A stretch of DNA of 64,000 bases from Phycisphaerales bacterium (GTDB taxonomy: Bacteria > Planctomycetota > Phycisphaerae > SM23-33 > FEN-1343): positions 2,682 to 66,681 of the forward strand of contig PMYD01000025.1 of NCBI GenBank assembly GCA_003171335.1. Reading direction: 5' to 3'. The notes under the pieces were generated by a model that saw only the letters and a list, made by a program, of their open reading frames with translations, did not search any database and was not told where the DNA came from. Below are positions 7,856 to 24,737 of this stretch, piece after piece. The translations under genes were made by a program, and so were the position numbers. Each line of letters begins with the position of its first letter. Within the stretch, counting starts at the first letter, position 1.

Positions 7856-7883
7856 ATCCAGACCTGGGGTCGCGATTCTTGTG

Positions 7884-8906: not shown

Positions 8907-8950
8907 TGAAGTTCTCTTTCTTTTCTTGGGTTAAACGGAATACCAGGGAA

Positions 8951-8995
8951 TTCTCGCAGAGGAATTGCAAATTGCAAATCGCAAATTGCAAATTT
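8951..8995. repeat. heptamer array (AATTGCA-type, 5+ units) about 50 bp upstream of the fba start
   Basis: GGAATTGCAAATTGCAAATCGCAAATTGCAAATTTAACGG, an AT-rich tandem-heptad tract in a GC-rich genome. Related arrays flank palindromic elements at 18430..18551 and 18993..19115. Confidence 0.7.
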
Positions 8996-9165
8996 AACGG
9001 CCGCACGCGGACGGGCAAGCCGCGTGCATAGGCTTGGGTGCCGTGGCTTGCGGAGCGCAGCGCAGCAACCACGACGACGGCGATGCAGAGCACGCGTGGT
9101 TGCTTCGGTCGCCGCAGCGACCTGTCCGCCATACTTCGGCGAATCCTGCGGAGAATGCCATCTGG

Positions 9166-9425
9166 GGATTCAACCCCGGAGGGGTTGATACAGCTCCAGC
9201 CCCGGGTTGGCGAAGACCGCGAAGCGGGCGCGCCTACCCGGGGAACAGGAGGCACCCAATTGCGTTCAACCCCGGCAGGGGTTGAATAGCTCCGTCTCGA
9301 ACCATTCTGCCCGCCGTCGTGCTATTCAACCCCTGCCGGGGTAGGAACCTGCGTCGGCGTCACCCAGGGTAGCCTCGCCGTGCTCGGCAACCCTGGGCTG
9401 GAGCTGTATCAACCCCTGCCGGGGT
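9166..9425. repeat. cluster of four palindromic hairpins of the TCAACCCCGGCAGGGGTTGA family within a larger ~260 bp inverted arrangement
   Basis: Hairpins near 9166, 9262, 9322 (imperfect) and 9399. The flanks GATACAGCTCCAGCCCCGGGTT (near 9185) and AACCCTGGGCTGGAGCTGTATC (near 9385) are inverted copies of each other. Intergenic between fba and the LysE-type gene. Confidence 0.7.
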
Positions 9426-9435
9426 TGAAAAAGAA

Positions 9436-10098
9436 CTAGCGGAAAAGATCGAAGCACTGCGACGTCGCCCCGTACAGGAAGCTGCCCGCGATCACGAAGA
9501 GCGCCAGCCCGCACAGGGCCAGGATGACGCGCTGGGATTTGGCGCCCAGCAGGGTGGACCCTTTAAACGTGGCGGTTGTCAGCAGCTCCAGCCAGACGGC
9601 ATCGCACATCCAGTGGATGATGCCGAAGGCGGCAAAGGCCATCAGGCCCAGGCTGCTGGCCTTGATAGCCAGGGCCAGGCCCACCGAGGCCCACCACAAG
9701 AGAAACAGCGGGTTCATGGCCGTCAGCACCAGGCCCACGAGGATGGGGCTGCGGGCGATCTTGGAGGCCGAGGAGCCGGAGCTCTTGGGCTGGGGATTTT
9801 TGAGCATGCCGACGGCCAGCCACAGCATCATGAGGCCGCCGACCAGGCCGATGGCGATTTTCACCGCCGGGATGTTCAGCACCTGCCCCACGCCCAGGAG
9901 GATGAGCGCCATCAGCGGGAATTCCACGATGCCGTGGCCGACGGCCATGCTCAGCCCCGCGTGCCGGCTGCGCGTGCCGGCGGCCAGGGCGGCGGCGGTC
10001 ATCGCGCCGGGCGAGATTACGCCCGAGAGCGACAGCACCACGGCCTGCAGCACCACCAGGGCGGTTTGGTTCCACGGCGTCGGTACGGTTGCAAGCAT
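9436..10098 (-). CDS. LysE/RhtB-type amino-acid exporter family membrane protein
   Basis: 220-aa polytopic membrane protein from a verified ATG (complement of 10096-10098). N-terminal ..VISPGAMT.. resembles the LysE-family SPGP motif, and size and TM pattern fit. Confidence 0.5.
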   Translation of the reverse strand: MLATVPTPWNQTALVVLQAVVLSLSGVISPGAMTAAALAAGTRSRHAGLSMAVGHGIVEFPLMALILLGVGQVLNIPAVKIAIGLVGGLMMLWLAVGMLKNPQPKSSGSSASKIARSPILVGLVLTAMNPLFLLWWASVGLALAIKASSLGLMAFAAFGIIHWMCDAVWLELLTTATFKGSTLLGAKSQRVILALCGLALFVIAGSFLYGATSQCFDLFR

Positions 10099-10216
10099 GT
10101 CGCCAGTTTAGAAGGAGCCGAGCAAATTCCAAATGCGAAATTCAAAAGGAACCGGACAGTGAGGCGAAGCCATGCGGCGCGAGGTGGCAAGCGTTGTAAG
10201 GTGGCATGCGTTGTAA

Positions 10217-10358
10217 GGTGGCATGCCCTCACGGCTGGGGCGAAGCCCCGGACGGGTGGGCATGGGTTTTCCATTTGCGCGAGGTCTTCCTTCTGCGCGG
10301 CAGACATGCCCACCCGCCTTGGCCGCCCAGGCGGCCTGCGGCGTGAGGGCATGCCACC
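10217..10358. repeat. nested-palindrome element, copy 2 of 3
   Basis: GGTGGCATGCCCTCACG..GACGGGTGGGCATG..CATGCCCACCCGCC..CGTGAGGGCATGCCACC. Preceded by a direct repeat GCGTTGTAAGGTGGCATGC x2. Sits between hydF stop and the LysE-type gene start. Confidence 0.85.
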
Positions 10359-10364
10359 TAATAC

Positions 10365-11597
10365 TTAACGGCCCTTCAATCGGTGGTACATCTCCAGCGC
10401 CGCCGGGAAGGGGCCGAGGGCCCGCTCGAGGATGCCCAGCGTATAGGCGATGGTCATGCCGTAATTGGCAACCGGCACGCCCGCCGCACGGCAGCGGAGC
10501 AGGCGCGAGAGCATCTCGCGGCGGTTCCACATGCAGGCACCGCAGTGGATGACGAGTTTGTAGGTCGAGAGGTCATCGGGGAAGTCGTGGCCCTGCACGT
10601 GCGTGAAGTCCATGGTGCCGCCGACATATTGCGTGAGCCAGCGCGGGATCTTCACGCGGCCGATGTCATCACCGATGGGGTGGTGGCTGCACGCCTCGGC
10701 CACCAGGATGCGGTCGCCGGGGCGGAGCTGCTCGATGGCCAGCGCACCCTCGACGAACACGTTCAAATCGCCCTTGGCGCGGGCGAAGACGATGGAGAAC
10801 GAGGTCAGCGGAATATCCTTGGGCGTGTCGCCGGCCACCTTGAGAAAACCCTGGGAATCGGTCACGACCAGGGCGGGGGGGCGCTTGAGCCGGTCCAGGG
10901 CATCGCGCAGCTCGCGCTCCTTGACGACCAGGCAGTACGCATCCACATCCAGCACATCGCGGATGGCCTGCACCTGCGGCAGGATGAGCCGGCCCTTGGG
11001 GGCCTCCAGGTCGATGGGCACGACCAGCATGACCAGCTCGCCCGCGCGCACGAGGTCGCCGATGATGGCCGGGGCGTTGATGAAATCCTCCGGCGCGGCC
11101 TTGATGAGCGCCTCGCGCAGGTCCAGGATGCCCTCGCCCTTGGAGGCGACGGTGTGGACGATGGGAATCTTCCTGCCCTTGAGGTCCTTCAGGAGCGCCG
11201 CATCGGGCTTTCCCAGGTCGGACTTGTTGAACACGACGATGGCCGGGGTCTTTCGCTCCGCCAGCTCGGCCAGGATGGCCTGTTCAAACGGACCCCACTC
11301 GCCGGCGGCCGTGACGAGGATGCCGACATCCGTGCGGTCGAACACCTGCCGCGTGCGCTTGACCCGCAGCTCGCCCAGCACGCCCACATCGTCGATGCCG
11401 GCGGTGTCGATGAACAGCACCGGGCCGATGGGCAGCAGCTCCATGGGCTTTTCCACCGGGTCGGTGGTCGTGCCGGCGATCTCCGAGACGATCGACACCG
11501 CCTGGCGGGTCATGGCGTTCAAGAGCGAGCTCTTGCCGACATTCCGCCGGCCGAAGATGCCGATGTGCAGACGAAAACCTTTGGGAGTACTTCTCAT
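10365..11597 (-). CDS. hydF: [FeFe]-hydrogenase maturation GTPase HydF
   Basis: N-terminal GTPase P-loop GIFGRRNVGKSSLLNA. C-terminal HydF cluster-binding motifs ..EACSHHPIGDD.. and ..IHCGACMWNRRE.. (CxH...HCxxC). The track's start 11603 is TTG; the ATG two codons in (complement of 11595-11597, MRSTPKGF...) is more likely. Confidence 0.85.
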   Translation of the reverse strand: MRSTPKGFRLHIGIFGRRNVGKSSLLNAMTRQAVSIVSEIAGTTTDPVEKPMELLPIGPVLFIDTAGIDDVGVLGELRVKRTRQVFDRTDVGILVTAAGEWGPFEQAILAELAERKTPAIVVFNKSDLGKPDAALLKDLKGRKIPIVHTVASKGEGILDLREALIKAAPEDFINAPAIIGDLVRAGELVMLVVPIDLEAPKGRLILPQVQAIRDVLDVDAYCLVVKERELRDALDRLKRPPALVVTDSQGFLKVAGDTPKDIPLTSFSIVFARAKGDLNVFVEGALAIEQLRPGDRILVAEACSHHPIGDDIGRVKIPRWLTQYVGGTMDFTHVQGHDFPDDLSTYKLVIHCGACMWNRREMLSRLLRCRAAGVPVANYGMTIAYTLGILERALGPFPAALEMYHRLKGR

Positions 11598-11603
11598 GTT
11601 CAA

Positions 11604-11784
11604 TCCTGCGGCGGGGCTCTTTTAACCCCTCTCCCTCAGGGAGAGGATGGCCCGAAGGGCCAGGTGAGGGTGTCGCCAATGGGTGAACTTCCCTTTTGCG
11701 ATCACCCTCACCCGGCTTCGCTGAAGCTACGCCGGGCAAGCCGGGCCTGACGGCCCACCTCCCCCATCCAGGGGGAGGGGTTTT
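11604..11784. repeat. three GC-rich hairpins in the hydF / aspA-like intergenic spacer
   Basis: CCTCTCCCT-CA-GGGAGAGG; GGTGAGGGTG..(32 nt)..CACCCTCACC; CCTCCCCCATCCAGGGGGAGGGG. Read directly. Confidence 0.6.
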
Positions 11785-13176
11785 TCAAGACCCCAGCCGG
11801 GTTACGTTTTCCGGACTGATCAGCTTATCAAATTCCTCGCCGGTCAAGATGCCTTGCTCGATGACCACCTCGCGCACGCTGCGGCCGCTGCGGCCGGCAT
11901 CGAGGGCGATTTGCTGGGCGGCGGGGTAGCCGATTCTCTCGACCAGGGCGGTTACAGCCGCCGTGGCGGAGCGGACCTGGGCGCTGCAGCGGTCGCGGTC
12001 GGCCTCGATGCCCTCAACGCACAGCCGGCGGAAGATGGAGCAGGCGGCGGTGAGGAGCTGGAGGCTTTCGAGCAGGCAGTCGGCGATGAGGGGCACGAAG
12101 GCGTTGAGTTCCAGCGAGCCCAGACTGGCGGCCTGGGCGATGGCCTGGTCGTTGGCCATGACGCGGATGGCCGCCTGCGTGACCGCCTCGGGGATGACCG
12201 GGTTGACCTTGCCGGGCATGATGGATGAACCCGCCTGGCGCGCGGGCAGGCGAATCTCCCCGAGGCCGGCCTGCGGACCGGAAGAGAGCCACCGCAGATC
12301 CGTGGAAACTTTTACGAGGCTGGTCGCCAGGGCTTTCAAAATTCCGCTGACCTCGACGAACGCATCCACATTCTGCGTGGCCTCGACGAGATTCTCCGCC
12401 CGCGCCAGACCCAGGCCGGTGATATCGCGCAGATGCTCCACGGCGCGGAAGATGAACTGCCGCGGGGCGCCCAGCCCTGTGCCGATGGCTGTACCGCCCA
12501 GGTTCACCACGCGCAGCCGCTCTTCGCACTTGTACACCCGCCAGCGGTCGCGGCTGAAGGCCTCGGCATAGGCGGACATCTCGCGGCCCAGCGTGGTCAA
12601 GACGGCATCCTGCATCTGCGTGCGGCCGACTTTGACCACATCGGCCAGGGCCTTCTCCTGAACCTGGAAGGCCTCGAGCAGGGCGGTGATCTCGCGTTCC
12701 AGGTCGCGCAGCATGCGGATGGCCGCGACTTTGAGCGCTGTGGGGTACGTGTCGTTGGTGGACTGGTGCAGGTTCAGGTCATCCAGCGGGCTGATGGCCT
12801 CGTAATCGCCGAGCTTGCGGCCGAGAATCTGCAGCGCGCGATTGGCCAGCACCTCGTTCACGTTCATATTGGTCGATGTGCCGGCCCCGCCCTGGAGGGC
12901 ATCGACGCGGATATGCTCATCCAGCAAGCCCTCGGCCATCTCCGCGCACGCCTGCTCAATGGCGATGCTCTTGGCATCGTCCCACTTGCCCAGCTCGTGA
13001 TTCGTCCGCGCGCACGCCAGCTTCACCGCGCCAAAGGCCCGGATGAGCTGAGGATGTATGGGTCTTCCGCTGAGAGGAAAATTTTCCAGGGCGCGTTCGG
13101 TATAAATGCCGTGGAGTGCGCCGGCGGGAACCTCGCGCTCGCCGAGGAGGTCTTTTTCTGTGCGGAAGTCAGCCAC
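11785..13176 (-). CDS. aspartate ammonia-lyase-like class II lyase (aspartase/fumarase superfamily), sitting between hydG and hydF
   Basis: Motifs TEKDLLGEREVPA, QGGAGTSTNMNVNEVLAN, HQSTNDTYPTA, GRTQMQDAVLTTLG, and signature GSSIMPGKVNPVIPE (the aspartase-like KVNPV(I/V)PE rather than fumarase KVNPTQCE). The track start 13212 is TTG inside a heptamer repeat; the GTG at complement 13174-13176 gives a canonical N-terminal length. Confidence 0.8.
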   Translation of the reverse strand: MADFRTEKDLLGEREVPAGALHGIYTERALENFPLSGRPIHPQLIRAFGAVKLACARTNHELGKWDDAKSIAIEQACAEMAEGLLDEHIRVDALQGGAGTSTNMNVNEVLANRALQILGRKLGDYEAISPLDDLNLHQSTNDTYPTALKVAAIRMLRDLEREITALLEAFQVQEKALADVVKVGRTQMQDAVLTTLGREMSAYAEAFSRDRWRVYKCEERLRVVNLGGTAIGTGLGAPRQFIFRAVEHLRDITGLGLARAENLVEATQNVDAFVEVSGILKALATSLVKVSTDLRWLSSGPQAGLGEIRLPARQAGSSIMPGKVNPVIPEAVTQAAIRVMANDQAIAQAASLGSLELNAFVPLIADCLLESLQLLTAACSIFRRLCVEGIEADRDRCSAQVRSATAAVTALVERIGYPAAQQIALDAGRSGRSVREVVIEQGILTGEEFDKLISPENVTRLGS

Positions 13177-13191
13177 AGTCGGGGACTCCAA

Positions 13192-13500
13192 ATTCCAAAT
13201 TCCAAATCCCAAATCCCAAACAACGGTTCGACCGCCCTGAGCGGCTCACCGCCGAAGGGGCTCCAAATCCCAAATTCCAAAGGGGAGCAAACATCCCGGT
13301 GCCACGGCTGCGTTGTTTGCAGCCGTGCGCTGTGTGAGTCGGTAAACGAGAGGTTCCTTGGCTTCCGCAGGACCTCTGGCAGCGCTGCCAGGTCTTGGCG
13401 CACGGCTGCAGAAGGCGCAGCCGTGGCACCAGGGACGTTTTGTTCCCATTTGGAATTTGGTGCTTGGGATTTGTTTGGGATTTGGAATTTGGGATTTGGG
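13192..13500. repeat. composite palindromic element: (CCAAATT/CCAAATC)n heptamer arms flanking an inverted pair of GTGCCACGGCTG..CAGCCGTGCGCT hairpins
   Basis: Left arm 13192-13225 and 13262-13280. Hairpins 13298-13332 and 13398-13430. Right arm 13442-13500 (GGAATTTGG..GGGATTTGGGATTTC). Lies between hydG stop and the aspA-like start. Confidence 0.8.
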
Positions 13501-13506
13501 ATTTCT

Positions 13507-14913
13507 TCACAGGTAGAGGTCCCTTTCCTGCGTCTCCCGAATCCGGCGCATTCTCTCTACAAGCTGGGTTTTGCCGGGATCCTCGGGCATCTTCTCAAGC
13601 TCGGCCGCGACCAAACGCTCGCCGGCCGTCCGCGTGGCGGGGGAGGCGTAATCGACGAGATACTCCTCCAGCGTGGTCAGCGCGTTGGGCGTGCACAGCC
13701 GCTGGATGAAGCCGGGGATGGCGAACTCCATGAAATGCTCGCCCGTGCGGCCCAGGCGGTAGCAGGAGGTGCAGAAGCTGGGGATGTAGCCATCATCCAG
13801 CAGCTCGCGCATCACGCGGTCGAGCGAGCGGACATCGCCCAGCTCGAACTGCTCGCGCTCCATCACCTGGGCATCGCCCGCCTCGGTGTAGCCGCCGATC
13901 TCGATGCGGCTGCCGGCGTCGATCTGGGAGACCCCAAAGGCCATCACCTCGCGCCGCAGCGCCGCCGGCTCGCGGGCGGTGAGGATCAGCCCGGTATAGG
14001 GGACGGATAACCGCAGGATGGCGATCAGCCGCTTGAACTGCTCATCATCGACGGCGTAGCGGCTGTCCAGGTCCGTGCCGGCGGCGGGGCGCAGGCGCGG
14101 GAAGCTGATCGTGTGCGGGCCGACGCCGTGGCGGTGCTGGAGGTACAGGGCGTGGCTGACCAGGCCGAGCACCTCGAAGCGCCAGTCGGCCAGGCCGAAA
14201 AGCGCGCCGATGCCCACATCGTCGCAGCCGGCATCCATGGCGCGGCTCAAGGCATCCAGCCGCCAGAGATAGTCGCCCTTGCGCGTGCCCGCCGGGTGCC
14301 ACTGGGCGTAGGCGCCGTGGTGGTAGGTCTCCATGAAGATCTGGTACGTGCCGATGCCGGCGGCTTTGACGAGGCGGTAGCCCTCGACATCCAGAGGGGC
14401 GGCGTTGATGTTCACGCGGCGGATCTCGCCGTGGCCGAGGCGCACCTCGTACACCTGCTTCACGCAGTCGGCGATGTAGGCGGCGTCGTACCGCGGGTGC
14501 TCGCCAAAGACCAGGATCGTCCGCTTGTGGCCCACGCGGACCATCGCCTCGACCTGCCGGCGGAGCTCCTCGGGACTCAGCGTGCGGCGGACCGAGGCGC
14601 GATTGGAGCAGCGGAAGCCGCAGTAGCCGCAGTCGTTGACGCAGTCGTTGCCGATGTAGAGCGGGGCAAAGAGCACGATGCGATTGCCGTACACATCGCG
14701 CTTGAGTTGCCTGGCGGCGGCGTAGATCTCCTCGATCAACTCCCGCTGCTCCGCGCGGAGCAGCACCGCTGTCTCCTCGACGGCCAGCGGCTGCTTCTCC
14801 AGGCTCTTGGCGATGATCTCGCGGACTTGGTCTGCCGCGGGGGCCTTGCCGGCCAACAGGCCCGACAGGTGGGCGTCGTCGATGAAATCGCTCGCCCGCT
14901 CATTCATTTTCAT
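13507..14913 (-). CDS. hydG: [FeFe]-hydrogenase maturase HydG (radical SAM tyrosine lyase)
   Basis: Radical SAM motif CVNDCGYCGF (CxxxCxxC). C-terminal HydG-specific CTSC-x22-C (..SFCTSCYRLGRTGEHFMEFAIPGFIQRLCTPNA..). ThiH-like overall. Start ATG at the complement of 14911-14913 (MKMNERASDF), or the next ATG at 14905-14907. Confidence 0.85.
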   Translation of the reverse strand: MKMNERASDFIDDAHLSGLLAGKAPAADQVREIIAKSLEKQPLAVEETAVLLRAEQRELIEEIYAAARQLKRDVYGNRIVLFAPLYIGNDCVNDCGYCGFRCSNRASVRRTLSPEELRRQVEAMVRVGHKRTILVFGEHPRYDAAYIADCVKQVYEVRLGHGEIRRVNINAAPLDVEGYRLVKAAGIGTYQIFMETYHHGAYAQWHPAGTRKGDYLWRLDALSRAMDAGCDDVGIGALFGLADWRFEVLGLVSHALYLQHRHGVGPHTISFPRLRPAAGTDLDSRYAVDDEQFKRLIAILRLSVPYTGLILTAREPAALRREVMAFGVSQIDAGSRIEIGGYTEAGDAQVMEREQFELGDVRSLDRVMRELLDDGYIPSFCTSCYRLGRTGEHFMEFAIPGFIQRLCTPNALTTLEEYLVDYASPATRTAGERLVAAELEKMPEDPGKTQLVERMRRIRETQERDLYL

Positions 14914-14976
14914 GCTTGCCAGAACACCCATACTACACCTTGCCTTGCTACACATTCGAAAAGGATCAAGTTCTTA

Positions 14977-15098
14977 GGTGCCACGGCTGTCCGCAGCCGT
15001 GCGCTGTGCGGACAACAGGGCAACCGGTTCGCTGGCTTCCAGCGGACCTTTCCGCGTTCTGGTCATTCCAGCGCACGGCTGCGGACAGCCGTGGCACC
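14977..15098. repeat. inverted pair of GGTGCCACGGCTGTCCGCAGCCGTGCGCT hairpins separated by ~65 bp
   Basis: First hairpin 14977-15006, second (inverted copy) 15070-15098. The stop of the REC-HK gene (15063) falls between them, so the second hairpin encodes that protein's last ~11 residues. A near-identical pair occurs at 42736..42860. Confidence 0.85.
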
Positions 15099-16238
15099 GG
15101 GGACTAGACCGGGGACCAGACTCTTGCCCAACGTCACCGTAAACGTGGTGCCCACGTCCGCCTGGCTGGTGGCGGCCACATCGCCGTCGTACAGGGCGGC
15201 GAGTTTCTTCACGATGGACAGGCCCAGGCCGCTGCCGACGATCCGCCGCGTCTTGTCGTTGCGGATGCGGCCGAATTCGGTGAACAGCTTGCCGATTTCC
15301 TCGGCCGACATGCCGATACCCGTGTCGGCCACGGCCAAGGTGACGGCCGCCGCCGACTGGCCGATCTGGACATCCACGCGGCCGTCGGGGCGGTTGTACT
15401 TGATCGCGTTGGAGATCAGGTTGTTCAGGATGATCTCCAGCTCCTGCCGGTCGGCCGTCATCACGGCCCCAGAGCCGGCCAGAGACACCGTCACGCCGGC
15501 CTCGCTGGCTTGGCCGGCGAAACTCTCGACGACCTCCGCCGCCACGGCCGCCACATCCAGCTCGACCAGCTCGCGTTTCATCTGGCCCGACTCGATCCGA
15601 GTCAGGTCCAGCAGGTCCTGGATGAGCTTGCGCATGGCGGTCAAACGGAACAGCGAGCGATCGAGCATCTGGTCGTACGTGGCTTGGTCGCTACCCGCCT
15701 GGCGGTGCAGAACGATCCGCAGGTAGCCCTCGATGGCGCCGATGGGGGCCTTGAGCTCGTGGGCCAGCACGGAAAGAAACTGGAAGCGCACCTGACGCTT
15801 CTCCTGGGCCAGCCGGCGGGCCTCGCGCTGGAGCAGCAGGTGCTTGGCCGCCTTGCGCACCGCGCCTTTGAGTTCATCGGGCGTGAAGGGTTTGGCAAGA
15901 AAGTCGTACGCGCCGCGCTTCGTGGCGGCCACGGCCGTGTCGAGCGAGGCGTAGGCGGTGATCATCACCGTCAGCACGTCCTGCTCGCCATCGGCCAGCT
16001 TACCCAGCACGTCCAAACCGCTCATGCCCGGCAGCTTGTGGTCCAGCAGCAGGATGTCAGGGGCCTGGGACGCGATCGACTCGAGCGCCTGCTCGCCGGT
16101 GGCCGCCTCGGCGACTTCAAAGTGCACGTCCCCGTTGATTTCGCGCAAGCGGACGGTGAAATCGCGCAGCGCCCGCTTAACGCCTTGGCGCATGCCAGGC
16201 TCATCGTCGACCACGAGGACTTGAAGGGGGCTGTTCAT
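15063..16238 (-). CDS. hybrid two-component protein: N-terminal receiver (REC) domain fused to HisKA/HATPase histidine kinase
   Basis: Verified ATG (complement of 16236-16238): MNSPLQVLVVDDEPGMRQGVKRAL... REC features: DD pair, ..LLLDHKLPGMSG.., K in ..FLAKPF... HisKA H-box ..LAHELKAPIGAIEGY... HATPase ..DTGIGMS.., ..GSGLGLSIVKK... Confidence 0.75.
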   Translation of the reverse strand: MNSPLQVLVVDDEPGMRQGVKRALRDFTVRLREINGDVHFEVAEAATGEQALESIASQAPDILLLDHKLPGMSGLDVLGKLADGEQDVLTVMITAYASLDTAVAATKRGAYDFLAKPFTPDELKGAVRKAAKHLLLQREARRLAQEKRQVRFQFLSVLAHELKAPIGAIEGYLRIVLHRQAGSDQATYDQMLDRSLFRLTAMRKLIQDLLDLTRIESGQMKRELVELDVAAVAAEVVESFAGQASEAGVTVSLAGSGAVMTADRQELEIILNNLISNAIKYNRPDGRVDVQIGQSAAAVTLAVADTGIGMSAEEIGKLFTEFGRIRNDKTRRIVGSGLGLSIVKKLAALYDGDVAATSQADVGTTFTVTLGKSLVPGLVPGATAVRSRALE

Positions 16239-16260
16239 AGTGAGTGCCTCTGTTCTTTTC

Positions 16261-16397
16261 GATTTCAAATTTCAAATTTCAACTTTGGTGGCACAGGCTT
16301 TCCAGCCTGTGGATTCTGGCCGTCACAGGCTGGAAAGCCTGTGCCACCACTCCCGCTGTTTCCGGCAGTTAAATTTGAAATTTGAAATTTGAAATCC
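16261..16397. repeat. palindromic element: (TTTCAAA)n heptamer arms flanking two inverted GGTGGCACAGGCT-TTCC-AGCCTGTGG hairpins
   Basis: Left arm GATTTCAAATTTCAAATTTCAACTTTGG (16261-16286). Hairpins 16287-16312 and 16324-16350. Right arm AGTTAAATTTGAAATTTGAAATTTGAAATCC (16367-16397). Lies between the HydS-HK stop and the REC-HK start. Confidence 0.85.
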
Positions 16398-16398
16398 C

Positions 16399-18405
16399 TC
16401 ATTCTTTTCCTTCCCTGCGTGGCAGCGTAATGGCGAAAGTCGTTCCCGTCGGCCCGGCGGCCTTGTCGGCGTTGGAGGTGACCTGGATGTCGCCGCGATG
16501 CATCTTCACCACGCCATACGCCACCGCCAGCCCCAGGCCGGTGCCCACGCCGATCTGCTTGGTCGTGAAGAACGGCTCGAAGATCTTCGTCAGGTTTTCC
16601 TTGGGAATACCCACGCCGGTATCGCTGACGGCCAGCGTGACTTTATCCTCATCGCCGCCGGCGCGGAGGGTCAACGTGCCGCCGGCCTCCATGGCTGCCA
16701 CGGCGTTGGTCAGCAGGTTGGTGAGCACCTGGATCATCTGGTCGGCGTCGAGGTCCGCCTCATCGTCATCTTCGCTCAGGTCCACGTGCGTTTCCAGGCG
16801 AATGGAGTCTGGAATATTCACCGAGCGCAGCGCCCGCTGAATAAGCTGGCGCAGGCTGACCGGCTGGAGCAGCACCTTGTTCTGCCGGGCAAAGTGCAGC
16901 AGACCGGAGACGATGCGCTTGCAGCGGTCGGCCTGCTCGGTGATCACGCTCATGTCCTGGCGCAGTTGCTCATTGCCGGCGTGCTCTTCCAGCAGCAGGT
17001 GCGCGTACATCAGCACGATGCCCAGCGGGTTATTCACCTCATGCGCGATGCCCGCGGCGAGCTGGCCCATGCTGGCCAGCTTCTCCGACTGCATCAGCGC
17101 CTCCTGGGCGCTGGCAAGTTCCTTATGCGACTCGGCCAACTGCGTGACGGTGGTGTGGAGCTGGTCGATCGTGTACGGCAGGCACATCTCCGTCTCGGCC
17201 AGGCCCTTGAAGATGGCCACGGCGTGCTCGCGGCAGGTGTCGTAGCCGCAGGCGCCGCAATTCAGCTCATCGGCGGCGGTCTGCTTGCCGATGCGCGCCA
17301 GGATCTGCCGGACCTCCTCTTCAAACGGCACGCTGATATGCTGGTCCTGCGCGGTGTAAGTGCGAGACAGGTCCAGGTCGGCCAGGCTCTCCATGTCGCG
17401 CTGCCAGCGGGCCTGGTCGAAATGGCGCAGCCGCTGGCGGACGTACTCGGCCACGCGCGCCCGGCGGAAGAAGACCGGGGTCTCGGGGGAGATGCCCGGG
17501 CCAGTGATGCAGCCCTTGCAGGCTAAGAGCTCCAGCAGCCTCGCGTCCAGGTCGCCGGTCTCGAATTCCTTGATCGCATCCACAAAATCCGTGCGGCCGT
17601 CGGCGGCGACGACGTGGCCTTCGAGCAGATCCTCGTGGATGTCGGCCGCCTGCAGCAGGCCGCGGCTGATGGAAAACAGCGCCCCAAGGCCCGCGTGCGG
17701 CGCATCAAAATCATCCTGCGCCGCCGGCTTAGGGACGATGCCCGTCTGCTGAAACATCGCCCGCAGCTCGGGAAATGTCAGCGCGGCATCCACCTCGCCG
17801 GTGAGGTGTGGGTTATCCACCTCGCCCTTTTTGGCCACGCAGGGTCCGATGAACACCACGCGCAGCTTGTCATGCCGGCCGCGGCGCAGCGCGCGGGCGA
17901 TGGCCACCATGGGCGAGACGATCGGCGCCAGGGCGTCCACCAGGTCGGGGTGATATTTTTCCACGAACGCCACGACCGCCGGGCAGCTTGTGGCGATGTA
18001 CCGCCGGCCGGCCGAGGCTTCCAGCAGCTTGCGGTAGCGGTCGGCCACCAGGTCGGCCCCGAAGCCCACCTCATGCACGGCCGCGAACCCCAGCTCGCGA
18101 ATCATGCCCACCAACTGCCGCCAGGAGCACTCGGTGAACTCCGCGGGAAAGCTGGGCGCCAGCACGGCGACCACGGGCTCACCCCCCGCCAGCAGCGTGC
18201 GGACGTGAACGGTGGAGTCCAGGACGACCTTGGCCTTCTGGCTGCACACGCGGACGCAGTTGCCGCAGCCGATGCAGCGTTCCGCCAGCACCTCGGCCTG
18301 GCCCTTGCCGATGCGGATGGCCTTGGCCGGGCACTCCCGCACGCAGGTGTAGCACACCCGGCAGCGCTCTTTGGCGGTCTGGACGAGATGGGTGGCGGAG
18401 GTCAT
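16399..18405 (-). CDS. sensory [FeFe]-hydrogenase-like protein (HydS-type H-domain) fused to a histidine kinase
   Basis: Verified ATG (complement of 18403-18405): MTSATHLVQTAKE... Two ferredoxin [4Fe-4S] motifs: CRVCYTCVRECP and CIGCGNCVRVC. Degenerate H-cluster motifs: ATSCPAV (L1 with a single Cys), GPCVAKKGE (L2, Gly in place of Met), ELLACKGCITGPG (L3, Leu in place of Met). Extra C-terminal NCGACGYDTCREHAVAIFKGLAETEMC (Cx2Cx4Cx16C). Then HisKA H-box ..GIAHEVNNPLG.. and HATPase ..DTGVGIP.., ..GTGLGLAVAYG... Confidence 0.75.
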   Translation of the reverse strand: MTSATHLVQTAKERCRVCYTCVRECPAKAIRIGKGQAEVLAERCIGCGNCVRVCSQKAKVVLDSTVHVRTLLAGGEPVVAVLAPSFPAEFTECSWRQLVGMIRELGFAAVHEVGFGADLVADRYRKLLEASAGRRYIATSCPAVVAFVEKYHPDLVDALAPIVSPMVAIARALRRGRHDKLRVVFIGPCVAKKGEVDNPHLTGEVDAALTFPELRAMFQQTGIVPKPAAQDDFDAPHAGLGALFSISRGLLQAADIHEDLLEGHVVAADGRTDFVDAIKEFETGDLDARLLELLACKGCITGPGISPETPVFFRRARVAEYVRQRLRHFDQARWQRDMESLADLDLSRTYTAQDQHISVPFEEEVRQILARIGKQTAADELNCGACGYDTCREHAVAIFKGLAETEMCLPYTIDQLHTTVTQLAESHKELASAQEALMQSEKLASMGQLAAGIAHEVNNPLGIVLMYAHLLLEEHAGNEQLRQDMSVITEQADRCKRIVSGLLHFARQNKVLLQPVSLRQLIQRALRSVNIPDSIRLETHVDLSEDDDEADLDADQMIQVLTNLLTNAVAAMEAGGTLTLRAGGDEDKVTLAVSDTGVGIPKENLTKIFEPFFTTKQIGVGTGLGLAVAYGVVKMHRGDIQVTSNADKAAGPTGTTFAITLPRREGKE

Positions 18406-18429
18406 GACAACCTCGGGCGTATTGCTGAA

Positions 18430-18551
18430 GGAATTGCGAATTGCAAATTGCAAATTGCAAATTGGGGAACTCCGAACCTCCCGCCGCTGTGGGCAGTGAG
18501 TGGCGATCCGGTGTCCCTGAATTGGCAATTTGCAATTCGCAATTGGCAATC
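18430..18551. repeat. palindromic element: (AATTGCA)n left arm and inverted (TGCAATT/TGGCAATT) right arm flanking an ~55 bp GC-rich core
   Basis: GGAATTGCGAATTGCAAATTGCAAATTGCAAATTGG ... GAATTGGCAATTTGCAATTCGCAATTGGCAATC. Sits immediately upstream of the HydS-HK start and downstream of the CheY gene stop. Confidence 0.8.
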
Positions 18552-18555
18552 TCTT

Positions 18556-18972
18556 CTAGCTGTCGTTTGGCGCGCAGGCCTTGTCGCCCAGCAGCCGGGC
18601 GACCTCCGCGCGGATCTGCTCAGCGCGGACGGGTTTATCGAGGATCAGGTCGGCCTTGACCCAGCTCTTGGCGTCTTCATCGTTGGGCACGAACGACAGG
18701 CCCGTGGCGGCGGCGACGGAGGTCAGCAGGATGACCGGCACATCCCCGTGCACGCGCTTGAGGTGGTAGGCCAGCACGAAGCCGCTGTCCATCTGCTCCA
18801 TCATCAGGTCCAGGATGGCCAGGTCGGGCTTTTGGCCTAAGAGCAGCTCCTCGCCCTGGCGCTGGCTGTGGCCGGCCTGCACCTCGTAGCCGTCGGCCTG
18901 GAGCACCAAGGTGAGTTGGGAAACGATGTCTTCGTCATCATCCACAATCAAGATTCTGGGCTTGCTGTTCAT
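18556..18972 (-). CDS. single-domain CheY-like response regulator (receiver only)
   Basis: Verified ATG (complement of 18970-18972): MNSKPRILIVDDDEDIV.. REC hallmarks ..DLAILDLMM.. and ..LLTSV... No output domain. Confidence 0.75.
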   Translation of the reverse strand: MNSKPRILIVDDDEDIVSQLTLVLQADGYEVQAGHSQRQGEELLLGQKPDLAILDLMMEQMDSGFVLAYHLKRVHGDVPVILLTSVAAATGLSFVPNDEDAKSWVKADLILDKPVRAEQIRAEVARLLGDKACAPNDS

Positions 18973-18992
18973 TTTCAAATGTCTCTCAGTTC

Positions 18993-19115
18993 GATTGCAA
19001 ATTGCCAATTGCAAATTGCCAATTAAAAACTCTTCCGCAGGAAGTGCCGCTTGATCGGCGCGGCGCCTCGCCGCAGCTCTTCAATTTGCAATTTGCAATT
19101 GGCAATTGGCAATCC
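18993..19115. repeat. palindromic element with (AATTGCA/AATTGCC) heptamer arms, related to 18430..18551
   Basis: GATTGCAAATTGCCAATTGCAAATTGCCAATT ... CAATTTGCAATTTGCAATTGGCAATTGGCAATCC. Fills the hydA-stop / CheY-start spacer. Confidence 0.8.
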
Positions 19116-20837
19116 TTACAGGGGAACTTCCCGCTTATGGTAGTGCGTGTGCAACAGGTGGTGGCTCTTCTCGCCCAGGGGCTTGCCCAGGAACTCGTCG
19201 TACAGCCGCGTGATCCAGGGGTTGGCGTGACTGACGCGGCGCGGCTCATCGCGGTCGATCTTGTACAGGGCCTGCATGCGCGCCCGCACCGACTCGAGGT
19301 CGGCGCCGATGGGCTGGCCGCCGCCGTTGATGCAGCCGCCGGGGCAGGTCATGATCTCGATGAACTGGAGGTCTTTGCGCCCGGCCCGCAACTGGTCCAA
19401 GAGCTGGCGGGCGTTGCCCAGGCCGCTGGCGACGGCGGCGCCGACGTCCAGCGTGCCGATGGTGGTGCGAAGCTCCTTGATGCCCTTCATGCCGCGCAGC
19501 GGCTGGATCTTCAAATCGCCCATCTCCTGGCCGGTGATCAGGTAGTACGCCGTGCGGACGGCCGCCTCCATGACGCCGCCGGAGGCGCCGAAAATCTTGC
19601 CGGCGGTAGTGCGCTCGCCGAAGGGCGTATCGGCCGCCTCGGCCTCCAGGGCCGCCAGGTTCACGCCGAACATCCGCAGCAACTGGCCCAGCTCGCGGGT
19701 GGTCAGCACGTAGTCCACATCGGGGACGTGGTTGGGCTGCATCTCCGGCCGCGCGCACTCGAACTTCTTGGCCGTGCAGGGCATGATCGACACGCTCACG
19801 ATATTGCCCGGCTCGATGTTCTCGCGCTGGGCGAAGAAGCTCTTGATGATCGCCCCCATCATCTGCTGGGGGCTCTTGCACGTGGAGAGGTTGGGGATGA
19901 ACTCCGGGTAGAACTGCTCCACGAATTTGATCCAGCCGGGCGAGCAACTGGTCATCATGGGCAGCACGCCGCCGGTGGTGACGCGATGCACCAGCTCGCT
20001 GGCCTCTTCCATGATGGTCAGATCGGCGGCAAACGAGGTATCAAAAACGCGGTCAAAGCCCACGCGGCGCAGGGCGGCCACCATCTTGCCGTCCACGTCC
20101 GTGCCGGGCTTTAAGCCGACTTCCTCGGCCAGGCTCACGGAGACCGCCGGGGCATGCTGGGCGATGACCAGCTTGGTCGGGTCGGCCAGGGCCGCCACCA
20201 CGGCGTCGAGGCTGGAGCGCTCGGACAGCGCGCCCGTCGGGCAGACCAGGATGCACTGCCCGCAGTTGATGCAACTGGAGAGGTTGAGCCCGGCGTTAAA
20301 CGCCGTGCCCACGAACGCCCGGCTGCCGCGGGCGATGAAATCCACGGCCGAGACGGTCTGGTATTCCTCGCACATGCGGACGCACCGGCCGCACAGGATG
20401 CACTTGCTCGGGTCGCGCAGGATGGAGGGGCTGGAGACATCCAGCTCACGTTTGCTCTTGGCGCCGCGATACAGCCGCTGGCGCACGCCCAGGTCCATCG
20501 CCAGGTGTTGCAGTTCGCACTTGCCGCCGCGCGGGCAGTACAGGCAGTCGTCGGGGTGGTTGCTCAGGAGCAGTTCCACGATGGTCCGCCGGGCCTCCAG
20601 CACGCGCGGGGTGCGGGTGCGGATCTTCAGCCCTTCGCTCACCGGGCAGGAGCAGGCGGTGACCAGGTTGCCCGTGCCTTCCACCTCGACCACGCACAGC
20701 CGGCAGGCGCCGCTGGGCGCCAGCCCGTCCATGTGGCACAGCGTGGGCACGTGAATGCCCTCGCGCCGCAGCGCCAGCAGAATCGTCTCGCCCGGCTTGG
20801 CCGCAATCTCGCGGCCGTCCGCTAGAAAAGTAGTCAT
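19116..20837 (-). CDS. hydA: [FeFe]-hydrogenase catalytic subunit HydA (M3-type, CpI/bifurcating-like), with an unusual L1 motif
   Basis: Verified ATG (complement of 20835-20837, GAGGAT SD). N-terminal 2Fe-2S ferredoxin-like domain. His-ligated cluster motif HPDDCLYCPRGGKC. Two 4Fe-4S motifs CILCGRCVRMC and CINCGQCILVCP. H-cluster motifs MMTSCSPGW (L1, normally TSCCPxW), MPCTAKKFE (L2), EIMTCPGGCINGGGQP (L3). Confidence 0.9.
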   Translation of the reverse strand: MTTFLADGREIAAKPGETILLALRREGIHVPTLCHMDGLAPSGACRLCVVEVEGTGNLVTACSCPVSEGLKIRTRTPRVLEARRTIVELLLSNHPDDCLYCPRGGKCELQHLAMDLGVRQRLYRGAKSKRELDVSSPSILRDPSKCILCGRCVRMCEEYQTVSAVDFIARGSRAFVGTAFNAGLNLSSCINCGQCILVCPTGALSERSSLDAVVAALADPTKLVIAQHAPAVSVSLAEEVGLKPGTDVDGKMVAALRRVGFDRVFDTSFAADLTIMEEASELVHRVTTGGVLPMMTSCSPGWIKFVEQFYPEFIPNLSTCKSPQQMMGAIIKSFFAQRENIEPGNIVSVSIMPCTAKKFECARPEMQPNHVPDVDYVLTTRELGQLLRMFGVNLAALEAEAADTPFGERTTAGKIFGASGGVMEAAVRTAYYLITGQEMGDLKIQPLRGMKGIKELRTTIGTLDVGAAVASGLGNARQLLDQLRAGRKDLQFIEIMTCPGGCINGGGQPIGADLESVRARMQALYKIDRDEPRRVSHANPWITRLYDEFLGKPLGEKSHHLLHTHYHKREVPL

Positions 20838-20852
20838 GCCATATCCTCGTTA

Positions 20853-20975
20853 CCGTGGCACGGGCGTCTCGCCCGTGAGTCGCACGGGCATCTTGCCCGT
20901 GATCCGGCCGTTTCTTCTCAGTTTCCACGGGCGAGACGCCCGTGGCACTCATGGGCGGGACGCCCATGCTACTCT
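20853..20975. repeat. cluster of four CACGGGCG-NNNN-GCCCGTG family hairpins in the hydB-hydA intergenic spacer
   Basis: CACGGGCGTCTCGCCCGTG, CACGGGCATCTTGCCCGTG, CACGGGCGAGACGCCCGTGGCAC, CATGGGCGGGACGCCCATG, all read directly. A second cluster of the same family is at 38676..38795. Confidence 0.85.
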
Positions 20976-23900
20976 TAATCCGGTTGCGTGAACTCCAGGT
21001 CGCAGCGCAGGCAGCGGCGGGCCTCCTTGACGGCATCCGCCTCGCTGATACACAGCTCGACCTCGGCGAAGGTGCACTTGCGCTGGCCCACGGGCAGCTC
21101 GGGGCACTTGACGCGCTCGACGATTGTCTCCGACTCCTCATCGTCGCCGCCGCCCGCCACGGGCGCCACGTACACCCCCGGCACGATGGCCTTGGGCAGC
21201 ACGCGCATGGCCTTGCCGCGGACGAACCGGTCGATCATGGCCGCCGCTTGCTTGCCGGTGCCCACCGCCGCAATGACGGTGGCCGGCCCGGTCACGGCGT
21301 CGCCGCCGGCGAAGATGCCCGTGCGACTGGTCTGGAAGCTCTCGCCGTTGGTCGCCACCGAGCCCCAGCGCGTAAGCGTCAATTGTTCGAGACCCTCGGT
21401 CTCGGGCTCCTCGCTGATGGCCACGACCAGCGTGTCCAGCTCCAGGTCGAATTCCGAGCCGGCGATCGGCACGGGCCGTTGCCTTCCGGAGGCATCGCGC
21501 TCGCCCAGCTTGTTGCGCTGCAGGCGCAGGCCGGTGAGCTTGCCATCTTTCGTGTGCACGGCCAGCGGGGCGACCAGCTCTTCAAGCTTGACGCCCTCTT
21601 GCAGCCCGGCCTCGACCTCTTCGTGGTAAGCCGGCATCTCCTCGCGCGTGCGGCGGTACAGCACCGTGACGCTGGTGACGCCTTTTTGCCGCAGGGCCAC
21701 GCGGGCGGCATCCATGGCGGAGTTGCCGCCGCCGATCACGCCCACCCGCCCGTGCGCCAGCTCCTGCCCGTGCAGGTTATGGGCCTTGAGGAAGGTCATG
21801 CTCGGGATGACGCCGCGGGCATCCTCGCCGGCTAGATCAAGCTTCTTGGACTTATGAGCGCCCGTGGCCACATAGACCGCGCTAAAACCCTGGGCCAGCA
21901 GGTCGTCCAGGCTGAAATCGCGGCCCAGTGCCGTGTTGTAGCGGATCTCGACGTTGGGATTGGTCAGCGCATCGATCTCCCGCCGCAACAGATCGCGCGG
22001 CAGCCGGTACGCCGGGATGGCGCCCACCAGCATGCCGCCGGGCTTGGCCTCGCGCTCAAAGACGGTCACGCGATGGCCCATCAGCGACAGGCAGTTGGCG
22101 GCCGTGAGGCCCGATGGCCCCGCGCCGATGACGGCGATCTTCGCCGCATTGGCCGCCGCCGGCGCCACCGCGGGCGTACCGACGCCGGGGCTGACGTGGT
22201 CCACGACGAACCGCTTGAGCGTACGCACGGCCACCGACTCACCGCCGGTTGAGCCGGCGCGGCAGGCGTGCTCGCACGGGTGATGGCACACGCGGGCGCA
22301 GGCCGAGGGGAACGGGTTACTCTGCCGGATCACCCGGTAGGCCTCCTCGTATTCGCCGCGGCCGATGTGGGCCACGTACCGCCACACTTCCGTGCCGGCG
22401 GGGCAGGCGTTCTGGCAGGGCGCGCCCACCAGGCTCTTGCACGCCCCGGCGGGGCAGCGGCGCTCGAAGACATGCGCCTCGTATTCCGCGCGGAACCATT
22501 TCAGCGTGCTCAGCACCGGGTTGGCGGCGGTCTGACCTAAGCCGCACAGGCTGGTGGCCTTGATCATCTCGCCCAGCCGCTCCAGGTGCATGATGCCCTG
22601 CACCCGCAGCAGGCTGTCGAAGGGGCTCTCCTGGCGCGGGCTGCGCGTCAACGCCTGGAGGATTTCCAGCATGCGCTTGGTGCCTTCGCGGCAGGGAATG
22701 CACTTGCCGCAGCTCTCCGACTGGATGAACTCCATGAAGAACTTGGCGAAATCGACCATGCAGGTCGCCTGATCAACCACCACCAGGCCCCCCGAACCCA
22801 TGATGGTCCCAAACTTCTTGAGCGCCTCGTAATCGGTCGGAATATCCAGCTCTTTTTCCGGCACGCAGCCGCCGGAGGGCCCGCCGATCTGCACGGCTTT
22901 GCACGCCTTGTTGTTGGGAATGCCGCCGCCGATATCAAACACCACCTGCCGCAGCGTGGTGCCCATGGGCACCTCCACCAGGCCGGTGCGGCGGACCATG
23001 CCCGAGAGGGCGAACACCTTGGTGCCCTTGGAGCTGGCCGTGCCCATGGCGGCGTACCACTGCGGGCCAATGTCAAGAATAAGGGGCAGATTCGCCAGCG
23101 TCTCCACGTTGTTGATGACCGTGGGCTTGCCGAACAGGCCCTTGACCGCCGGGTAGGGCGGCCGCGGCCGCGGCATGCCGCGCCGGCCTTCGATGCTGTG
23201 GATGAGCGCCGTTTCCTCGCCGCACACGAACGCGCCGGCGCCCTGCTTGATGACGATCTCCAGGGAGAAGCCGCTGTCCAGCACGTTCTCGCCGATCAGC
23301 CGGTACTGCCGCGCCTGGGCCATCGCCTGCTGAAGGCGGCGGATGGCCACGGGGTACTCGGCGCGGATGTAGATGTACGCCTTGGACGCGCCGATGGCGT
23401 AGGCCGCGATGAGCATGCCTTCCAGCAGCCGGTGCGGATCGCTCTCGCCCACGGCCCGGTCCATGAACGCGCCGGGGTCGCCCTCGTCGGCGTTGCAGAT
23501 GAGATATTTCTGGTTCGCCTGGGAGGCGCGGGCGAATTTCCACTTCTTGCCAGTGGGGAACCCGCCGCCGCCGCGGCCGCGCAGGCCGCTGGCTTCCACC
23601 TGGTCGCAGACTTCCTCGGGCGTCATCTTGCCCAGCACCTTGGCCACGGCCGAGTAGCCGCCCCAGGCGATGTATTCATCGATGCTTCCCGGGTCCAACA
23701 GGCCGCTGGTGGCCAGCACCACGCGCCGCTGGCGGATGAGGAACGGGTGCTCGTCGAGATAGCGCACCTGGTCCCAGGGCTTTAGCAAGAGCCCTTCCTG
23801 CCGGAACTGGCCCAGCGCCGCGCCCTCGGCGACCTTGGCATCGACCAGCACCGCCTTGAGCACGGCCTCGACCTTGTCGGCCGTGGCATTTCCAAAGCAG

Positions 23901-24259: not shown

Positions 24260-24737
24260 TGGCGTGTTCCTGATGACGGCAGTCCTGGAGAATTCGTGTG
24301 CACTTGCGCGGCGTGACCTTGGCGTAGAACTCGCCGTTGATGTTCACCACCGGCGAGAGGCCGCAGGCGCCCATGCAGGCCACCACCTCGAGCGAGAAGA
24401 GCCCATCCCGGGTCGTCTGACCGGGACTGATCTTCAGCTCCTTCACCACCGCCTCCAGCACCGACAGCGAGCCTTTCACGTGACAGGCCGTGCCGCGGCA
24501 CACCTGCACGTGATACTTGCCCGGCCGCGTGAAGCGGAACTGGTTGTAAAACGTGGCGACGCCATAGATCTTGCTCGTGGGCAAGTTGAGGTGCTTGCCC
24601 ACCCGCATGATGACATCCTTGGAAAGGTACCCGTGCGCGGTCTGGATCTCCTGGAGAATGGGGATGAGCGTCTCACGCCCCGCCCCGGGGTGCCGCGCGA
24701 GAATCGGTTCAATGTCCGGCTCTACCATCGTGGCCAT
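24246..24737 (-). CDS. hydC: hydrogenase NuoE-like [2Fe-2S] thioredoxin-fold subunit HydC
   Basis: MATMVEPDIEPILARHPG.. from ATG (complement of 24735-24737, GGAAGG SD). NuoE motifs ..VQVCRGTACHVKG.. and ..EVVACMGACGLSPVV... Overlaps the hydB start by 14 nt. The ORF-track extension to 25139 is not credible. Confidence 0.8.
   Translation of the reverse strand: MATMVEPDIEPILARHPGAGRETLIPILQEIQTAHGYLSKDVIMRVGKHLNLPTSKIYGVATFYNQFRFTRPGKYHVQVCRGTACHVKGSLSVLEAVVKELKISPGQTTRDGLFSLEVVACMGACGLSPVVNINGEFYAKVTPRKCTRILQDCRHQEHANAGC

Follow-up and report, generated by a model that had tools for sequence, protein, structure and literature searches.

Background

Among the long simple sequence repeats (SSRs) of bacteria, heptanucleotides make up the most abundant class (Mrazek 2007, as cited in PMC4679880), and polymerase slippage has been proposed for them. 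Here, we report on tandem arrays of AT-rich heptamers and octamers, many of them in inverted pairs, between the genes of a 64,000-nucleotide stretch of DNA (the window) from a Phycisphaerales bacterium of the Planctomycetota (assembly GCA_003171335.1, contig PMYD01000025.1, positions 2,682 to 66,681). A preliminary description of this DNA, made from its letters, could name nothing comparable; however, convergent heptamer arrays of Xanthomonas (PMC4692102) and hairpins of the short tandemly repeated repetitive (STRR) sequences of cyanobacteria (PMC2670836, PMC2408588) have been described.

In X. campestris and X. axonopodis, Rehm et al. (2015) reported 186 arrays of the heptamer GGGAATC, of which 89-93% are intergenic, at a mean of 28 nt from the upstream open reading frame (ORF) and mostly with co-oriented neighbours; the arrays make up 70-75 convergent pairs, most often consist of 4 units, differ in length between species and were assigned no function (PMC4692102). 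In cyanobacteria, a hairpin made of 7-bp STRR repeats lies between hupS and hupL, two genes that are co-transcribed (PMC2670836, PMC2661322), and roles in transcript stability, translational coupling or termination have been proposed for such hairpins (PMC2670836, PMC2661322, PMC2408588). For the TAACTGA direct repeats that MacGregor (2015) described in marine Beggiatoaceae, Cyanobacteria and Bacteroidota, S1, Csp and CsrA were put forward (PMC4679880), and repetitive extragenic palindromic (REP) sequences and the bacterial interspersed mosaic elements (BIMEs) are thought to stabilise upstream mRNA (PMC3116915, PMC3733652).

Results

Tandem arrays and their inverted partners

Tandem Repeats Finder and our own period scan of the window detected five spacers with inverted array pairs and three solo arrays, i.e., eight loci (E1 to E8), all of which are intergenic and flanked by co-oriented genes, as the preliminary description had stated for the loci that it named. 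Sequence inspection and Tandem Repeats Finder placed its five loci, as well as a solo array 5' of fba, where it had located them. All five carry inverted pairs, but the account of them as heptamer-armed holds for four; the fifth (2410-2592) has a period of 8 and a third, internal array. The loci are listed below with the arrays called by Tandem Repeats Finder (copy numbers as "x") and, for the paired loci, the predicted RNA fold (z against shuffled sequences); REP-A and REP-C are families described further below.

E1, 2410-2592, minus strand: octamer-armed hairpin 5' of secDF (ATG at 2360); arms 2422-2450 (GGTTAATC units) and 2558-2586 (GATTAACC / GATCAACC), 86% complementary across 29 nt; three period-8 arrays at 2425-2444, 2463-2502 and 2564-2590, the internal one (2463-2502) being GGTCAATT x5; fold -87.5 kcal/mol, z -4.8
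E2, 8963-8994, minus strand: solo AATTGCA array, x4.6, 57-88 nt 5' of the fba start (8906); able to fold on itself because the palindrome TTGCAA lies within the unit
E3, 10123-10147, minus strand: solo degenerate array CAAATTC CAAATGC GAAATTC, approx. 25 nt 5' of the lysE start (10098); shares the 12-mer ATTTGGAATTTG with E4
E4, 13185-13504, minus strand: nested hairpin flanked by the stop of HydG (13507-13509) and the inferred GTG start of the lyase (13176); outer arms 13188-13223 / 13471-13504 (CCAAATT / CCAAATC units), inner arms 13263-13291 / 13439-13467; TCCAAAT array, x4.9, at 13187-13220 and additional CCAAAT-type arrays at 13263-13281 and 13448-13504; centre an inverted REP-C doublet (13295-13330 / 13398-13433); fold -192 kcal/mol, z -12.7
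E5, 16261-16396, minus strand: hairpin between the stop of the HydS-type histidine kinase (16399-16401) and the start of the response regulator/histidine kinase hybrid (RR-HK; ATG at 16238); arms 16261-16286 / 16371-16396 (ATTTCAA units), 96% complementary; arrays at 16262-16286 and 16371-16395, x3.6 apiece; an inverted REP-A doublet (16286-16349) nested against the left arm; fold -87.4 kcal/mol, z -13.1
E6, 18427-18556, minus strand: hairpin between the response-regulator stop (18556-18558) and the start of the HydS-type histidine kinase (ATG at 18405); arms 18431-18464 (AATTGCG / AATTGCA) and 18520-18550 (AATTGGC / AATTTGC / AATTCGC); arrays at 18432-18464 (x4.7) and 18520-18550 (x4.4); core unique; fold -66.9 kcal/mol, z -8.8
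E7, 18993-19114, minus strand: hairpin flanked by the stop of the HndD hydrogenase (19116-19118) and the ATG start of the response regulator (18972); arms 18994-19024 (ATTGCAA / ATTGCCA alternating) and 19078-19113 (CAATTTG x2, then CAATTGG x2); arrays at 18994-19024 (x4.4) and 19082-19113 (x4.6); core unique; fold -69.4 kcal/mol, z -8.2
E8, 46242-46264, plus strand: solo octamer array ACGRATTA x2.5, ending 16 nt 5' of an ATG at 46280

Overall, the paired loci comprise four with heptamers and one with octamers, each array having 3.6-5 units, and the two arms of a locus are reverse complementary at 86-96% of positions across 25-35 nt. According to Tandem Repeats Finder, the period-7 arrays (E2 and E4 to E7) have 3.6-4.9 copies with 87-100% matches, while E1 and E8 have a period of 8; the period scan added E3 and E8. 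These two arrays and the inner arm pair of E4 are absent from the preliminary description. None of the three array types is expected by chance (0 for each in dinucleotide-preserving shuffles of the window), as compared to 7, 6 and 3 observed. In a census restricted to arrays of at least 24 nt, period 7 accounted for 10 of the 16 AT-rich tandem arrays of the window and was, in 500 kb of related DNA, the top period among those not divisible by three. The arms have a GC content of 11-37%, as compared to 65% for the window.

The arrays are concentrated in the first 20 kb, where about 7 of 13 spacers carry them as compared to 1 of 28 in the remainder, i.e., E8 (Fisher P = 5e-4, post hoc). At least five distinct AT-rich units occur inside these 20 kb, and some neighbouring loci share a unit (AATTGCA at E2, E6 and E7; CCAAATT at E3 and E4). 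The earlier observation that the unit differs among loci while the arms of one locus match, and thus that a palindromic architecture recurs, is supported. The arrays are identical across four independent metagenome assemblies, which probably represent one strain (look-ups of exact proteins returned identical contigs only) and which exclude an assembly artefact.

Predicted RNA folding and placement between genes

The five pairs are predicted to form RNA stems of 25-45 bp, with folds of -62 to -192 kcal/mol and z scores of -4.8 to -13.1 as compared to shuffled sequences. On the mRNA strand, the stem begins 0-7 nt past the stop codon of the upstream gene and finishes 11-22 nt ahead of the next start, the spacer being almost filled by it. 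At E4, the final unit of the 3' arm (UUUGGAG) places GGAG 8 nt 5' of the inferred GTG start of the lyase (13176-13190), so that the array may supply, and partly sequester, the ribosome-binding site of this gene.

The cores between the arms had been described as GC-rich; their GC content (0.61-0.69), however, is that of the genome average (0.65 for the window). A structured GC-rich core was also rejected as a general feature, since the median core z was -1.2 (against mononucleotide shuffles) and the GC content of the core was at or below the average of the locus. The REP hairpins that were said to be frequent in the cores are present in two of the five (13295-13433 and 16286-16349) but not in the other three.

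No U-tract was seen 3' of any of the five stems. In positions 1-20000, a consensus scan found 16 terminator-like sites (14.4 expected) and a sigma-70 scan found 1 promoter-like site (3.1 expected), i.e., neither was enriched, and a search of the whole window against Rfam 15 gave zero matches at or above the gathering threshold.

Comparison with described repeat classes

The elements represent a new lineage example of the already described STRR / long SSR heptanucleotide class, with which they share tandem 7-nt units, an intergenic location near the upstream stop codon, co-oriented flanking genes and frequent convergent pairs. The likeness to the Xanthomonas repeats includes approx. four tandem 7-nt units, an intergenic location (approx. 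90% there) near the end of the upstream ORF, and co-oriented genes; in Xanthomonas, about three quarters of the arrays are in convergent pairs capable of forming stem-loops, and their presence and length vary among related genomes. Moreover, the E4 arm unit GGGATTT resembles the Xanthomonas units GGGAATC and GGGGATT. Xanthomonas, however, has essentially one G-rich unit genome-wide, interpreted as forming G-quadruplexes, whereas the window packs at least five AT-rich and mostly quadruplex-incapable units into consecutive junctions of one operon. Taking at least four G3 tracts per array as the requirement for a quadruplex, AATTGCA, ATTTCAA and GGTTAATC contain no G3 tract, and only the plus-strand arm of E4 has GGG tracts (three GGG and one GG).

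As in the cyanobacterial STRR sequences, 7-bp repeat hairpins here lie in the spacers of co-transcribed operons, and the unit ATTGCGA / AATTGCG occurs in both; the hypF-hypC spacer of Nostoc contains ATTGCGAATTGCGAATTG, which equals the E6 unit (PMC2408588). The occurrence of the repeats with hydrogenase genes in both groups is probably a coincidence. Conversely, the STRR sequences occur in AT-rich hosts and fall into a few unit families that extend across the genome in tens to hundreds of copies, and their arrays are often solo and sometimes much longer than those of the window. The solo arrays E2, E3 and E8 are similar to the TAACTGA arrays (2-6 copies), which are intergenic and just 5' of start codons; unlike in the window, TAACTGA is one unit genome-wide, with 169 direct sets as compared to one indirect set (PMC4679880).

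The elements are also similar to REP, BIME and REPIN sequences in being intergenic, palindromic, often arranged as inverted doublets and located past stop codons within operons (PMC3116915, PMC3733652). REP sequences, however, are conserved imperfect palindromes of 20-40 nt that occur in many copies and are moved by REP-associated tyrosine transposases (RAYTs), whereas the heptamer arms are simple tandem repeats with locus-specific units and unique cores. With regard to MITEs (miniature inverted-repeat transposable elements), no target duplications were found at the element ends and no second copy of any core. With regard to Rho-independent terminators, no U-run follows any stem, and one weak site only was found, in the E7 core.

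Distribution in other genomes

A scan of one genome per species (185,579 species; pattern AATTGNN x3 + AATTG) yielded at least 120 loci in Cyanobacteria, Bacteroidota, Acidobacteriota, Chloroflexota, Planctomycetota, Armatimonadota, Xanthomonas and others. The preliminary description had raised the question whether such arrays always occur as inverted pairs and whether inverted pairing is enriched. They do not always do so, either in the window (five paired, three solo) or across phyla, where 94 (74%) of the 127 seed arrays among the matches listed were solo. Among the same 127 arrays, however, an inverted partner (within 400 nt) was significantly more frequent than a direct one (26 versus 7; P = 0.0013, binomial test). 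Across 50 inverted pairs, the arms had a median length of 31 nt (4.4 units) and the gap one of 48 nt, with a difference of approx. one unit between the two arms, figures that are biased by the detection thresholds (at least 19 nt; at least 26 nt for seeds).

The same architecture with other units was found in GC-rich genomes, e.g. GAAAATT in Thermoanaerobaculia (locus L037), GAATTGA in Acidobacteriota (L090), GATGAAG in Anaerolinea (L102) and TAATTGT in Desulfohalobiaceae (L082), and the stem starts 1-20 nt past stop codons in L102, L109, L194 and L197. Zero-loop forms, in which two heptamer arrays abut as perfect palindromes, were observed in Armatimonadota and Anaerolinea: (AATTGTC)2(AATTGAC)2 at L079 3299-3331 and (CAATTGA)2(CAATTGT)4 at L102 2032-2080.

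As a sample of the organism's own lineage that is unbiased toward any unit, metagenomes were probed with REP-C, which gave 94 loci (approx. 500 kb, 67% GC). These contain five inverted pairs, all with different units (AAGTTCA in L167; AAATGYT and ATTGCGG in L194; ATTTTCG in L197; AAAGTGA in L203), and about three solo arrays, i.e., approx. one element per 60 kb as compared to seven in the first 20 kb of the window. In L194, elements likewise occupy consecutive spacers.

The host operon and its relatives

All genes from position 1 to approx. 25 kb of the window are on the minus strand and include secDF (identified by a Pfam match), yajC, a dockerin protein, fba and lysE; hydF, an aspartase-like lyase and hydG; the RR-HK; the HydS-type sensory hydrogenase-kinase; a response regulator; and hndD, hndC and hndA. 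The operon at 18405-25112 encodes an HndABCD-type [FeFe] hydrogenase with a response regulator, a fusion of a HydS-like sensory hydrogenase with a histidine kinase and a second RR-HK, followed by HydG, the lyase and HydF. The closest HndD homologues (approx. 79-80% identity) come from metagenome-assembled genomes of Planctomycetota and Phycisphaerae.

Orthologous junctions of relatives carry no AT-rich arrays. In L225 (GCA_964461295.1), which has the gene order of the window and encodes a response regulator and a HydS that are 63% and 68% identical over their full length, the stop of hndD and the start of the response regulator overlap (ATGA) and the spacer between the response regulator and HydS is 32 nt; the hydrogenase C-termini are alike in the window (...EVPV*) and L225 (...EVPL*). 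In five further relatives (loci L005-L010 and L227), the spacer between hndD and the response regulator is 52 nt, where nothing but a small hairpin overlies the stop codon, the HydS and RR-HK junctions are 17 and 40 nt, and no AT-rich period-7 or period-8 array was found across approx. 20 kb. The counterparts of these junctions in the window measure 143, 150, 160 and 330 nt. As the junctions of the relatives overlap or span 17-52 nt, the elements of the window are derived expansions within an ancestrally single operon; the comparison of junction lengths shows a history in which arrays expanded overlapping or 17-52 nt junctions to 143-330 nt in the window lineage, and the arrays cluster in the hydrogenase operon.

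In L007 and L009, a divergent operon of their own contains the sensory and maturase genes, so that gene order was rearranged in the window lineage. The hndC-hndD spacer of L225 (9887-10001) contains a GC-richer period-7 array (GCCGGTA GCCGGCA GCCGATA GCCGGCA) with a partial inverted partner, CCGGCTATTGGTT, which indicates that the heptamer hairpins of the lineage are not always AT-rich; the hndC-hndD junction of the window (20838-20974) contains GGGCGTCCCGCCC-type hairpins.

Other repeats and a Y1 transposase in the window

Palindromic or tandem repeats have generally colonised the spacers of this genome. Among them are three REP families of six copies apiece, all with a ...TG(C/G)CACC end and mostly arranged as inverted doublets (REPIN-like); REP-C was also found in 94 metagenome contigs from other samples.

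REP-A copies: 7559, 7592, 16288, 16337, 24871 and 52107
REP-B copies: 7717, 7845, 10218, 10347, 27520 and 27631
REP-C copies: 13299, 13419, 14978, 15087, 42737 and 42849
40237-40689, minus strand: IS200-like Y1 transposase, 150 aa (PF01797, E = 1e-20)

A perfect 30-nt REP-C doublet is located at 14977-15006 / 15069-15098, and the arm at 15069-15098 is part of the RR-HK gene at its 3' end (stop at 15063), the final approx. ten codons thus being supplied by the REP. A 21-nt inverted repeat, consisting of CACGCGCAGCGCGGGCCGAGC plus the reverse complement (40162-40182 and 40810-40830), brackets the Y1 gene, the product of which is probably a REP-associated tyrosine transposase; it shares the window with the heptamer arrays, and nothing connects the two.

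The 530-nt fba-lysE spacer holds a palindromic family, ACCCCGGCAGGGGTTGA(A/T)..., with four copies in nested inverted pairs (9174-9225 / 9372-9423 and 9269-9290 / 9321-9342). Other large intergenic repeats are located at 25179-25443, 30093-30225, 30480-30685 and 50048-50292, and consist of tandem arrays of 107 bp x2.5, 66 bp x2 and 61 bp x3.4 and a 46-nt inverted repeat with 98% complementarity.

Discussion

The pattern is genuine and striking, and it belongs to a class that is already known but functionally unexplained. With a probability of roughly 0.55, we regard the elements as slippage-born heptanucleotide (in two cases octanucleotide) repeat hairpins that act, if at all, as intercistronic RNA stem-loops. 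Replication slippage would add or remove units in a 7-nt register, a second arm would arise by inverted (fold-back) copying of the first array or of the base of a small hairpin, and the arms would then slip independently; convergent pairing would turn the whole intergenic spacer into one long hairpin. The unit sequence would be set locally and would therefore differ among loci while the arms within a locus agree, and growth would halt where a stop codon or ribosome-binding site would be damaged. The variant units of E7 are ordered ABAB in one arm and AABB in the other, and a mirror-order test of variant units in 32 pairs gave a weak result of low power (mean z 0.32, P ~0.08). On a polycistronic mRNA, a stem placed right after the upstream stop would leave the downstream ribosome-binding site free, and may represent a barrier to 3'-to-5' exonucleases, possibly also an RNase III site or a partial transcription pause, as for REP/BIME sequences. 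As a result, the levels of the structural hydrogenase genes would no longer be tied to the levels of the downstream regulatory and maturation genes. The data agree equally well with a largely neutral by-product of slippage that perpetuates itself.

Several observations weigh against this explanation. The RNA-level role is one that we infer, and folding strength is about equal on the sense and antisense strands (E7 folds better in sense, E4 in antisense), i.e., there is no strand asymmetry that would provide a G.U signature of mRNA-level selection. The data do not demonstrate ongoing slippage, as the four assemblies, probably from one strain, have identical arrays; the next relatives in this comparison of unit numbers, at approx. 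80% identity, have no arrays, and a search of the protein collection for homologues at 80-100% identity found none, so that intermediate array states were unseen. Moreover, slippage alone explains neither the formation of an inverted partner nor why arms remain near 4-5 units across lineages with unrelated units, and the arm lengths are themselves biased by the detection thresholds.

The preliminary description had seen in these spacers a position for a terminator plus promoter. In such an arrangement, or in a bidirectional terminator, the GC centre would fold first, the T-rich 3' arm would serve as U-tract and the AT-rich arm or core as the next promoter. The location of the elements directly after stop codons fits this, as do a weak terminator-like site on the transcribed strand of the E7 core (19044-19032, tail AGTTTTTAAT) and, in other phyla (L037, L109), some cores that are classic GC hairpins followed by a T-rich arm. 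A tendency toward A-rich 5' arms and T-rich 3' arms (24 pairs versus 14 overall, and 12 versus 4 among GC-rich genomes), however, is not significant (P = 0.14 for 24 versus 14), none of the five stems has a U-tract behind it, a structured core is not the rule (median z -1.2), and the scans found no enrichment of either kind of site. As the 11-22 nt between stem and next start leave insufficient room for a promoter and a leader, and as the overlapping or 17-52 nt junctions of the relatives imply co-transcription, we consider this arrangement unlikely. Movement of the elements as non-autonomous MITE- or REPIN-like units with heptamer terminal inverted repeats, e.g. by the Y1 enzyme at 40237-40689, would account for the absence of elements from the orthologous junctions of relatives and for the proximity of several elements to each other; arms of approx. 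30 bp do resemble terminal inverted repeats, and the window contains a Y1 transposase and three REP families, with REP doublets inside E4 and E5. Conversely, the cores of E1, E4 (non-REP parts), E6 and E7 are single-copy in the window and in approx. 1.5 Mb of fetched DNA, those of E6 and E7 are unrelated despite a common unit, no target-site duplications are visible, the unit is locus-specific nearly everywhere, which a sequence-specific transposase could not tolerate, and 74% of the arrays across phyla (matches listed) are solo. A mobile origin is thus improbable; identity as MITEs in particular is ruled out by the unique cores, the lack of target duplications and the locus-specific units.

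Two further explanations, each of which we rate as having little chance of being correct, invoke binding or DNA structure. Cold-shock domains contact 6-7 nucleotides, and the arrays could be cooperative platforms for a protein with a footprint of approx. 7 nt, acting either on RNA (a cold-shock-domain, S1 or CsrA-type protein that would melt the hairpin or lock it and thereby adjust translation or read-through) or on DNA (a nucleoid protein). This would agree with the strict 7-nt register common to unrelated units in at least six phyla, with an arm length near 4-5 units irrespective of G-quadruplex potential, and with solo arrays 15-60 nt 5' of start codons, as for the TAACTGA repeats (PMC4679880). 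Neighbouring loci, however, differ in unit sequence, so that any binder would have to be almost indifferent to sequence; in the window, the elements are linked to no candidate gene, and any binding is putative. Alternatively, AT-rich inverted arrays, as the sites in DNA of 65% GC that would most easily unwind or extrude cruciforms, could buffer transcription-driven supercoiling between genes. REP/BIME elements bind gyrase and integration host factor, the arms are of 11-37% GC, and folding without strand asymmetry is what would be expected if the duplex rather than the mRNA mattered. The proposal is nevertheless a purely inferential one; AT-rich genomes also have heptamer pairs, which are no compositional outliers there, and GC-richer arrays such as the GCCGGTA units of L225 are known.

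Overall, these data extend a poorly understood repeat class to Planctomycetota and, as the genome scan shows, to Acidobacteriota, Chloroflexota and Armatimonadota of high GC content. Inverted pairing and arms of approx. four units occur across phyla independent of G-quadruplex potential. As the preference for approx. four units is also found in AT-rich units that cannot form quadruplexes, the four-G-tract rationale of the Xanthomonas study is weakened. Moreover, hairpins of this kind can invade junctions which are translationally coupled in relatives, splitting genes that were once coupled, and can thereby remodel operon architecture. The practical value is modest, yet these loci represent good test cases for the effects of heptamer hairpins on mRNA stability or read-through. 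The 7-nt register, the arm length and the placement at stop codons hold even where G-quadruplexes are impossible. Together, the register, the arms of approx. 4.4 units and the stop-adjacent placement in at least six phyla may, as an outside chance, reflect one conserved molecular ruler and function, e.g. sequence-tolerant platforms of the cold-shock-domain or S1 type that open or lock intercistronic hairpins. If so, the elements would allow stress-dependent uncoupling of the genes of an operon, and would constitute a general, overlooked regulatory layer rather than slippage debris.

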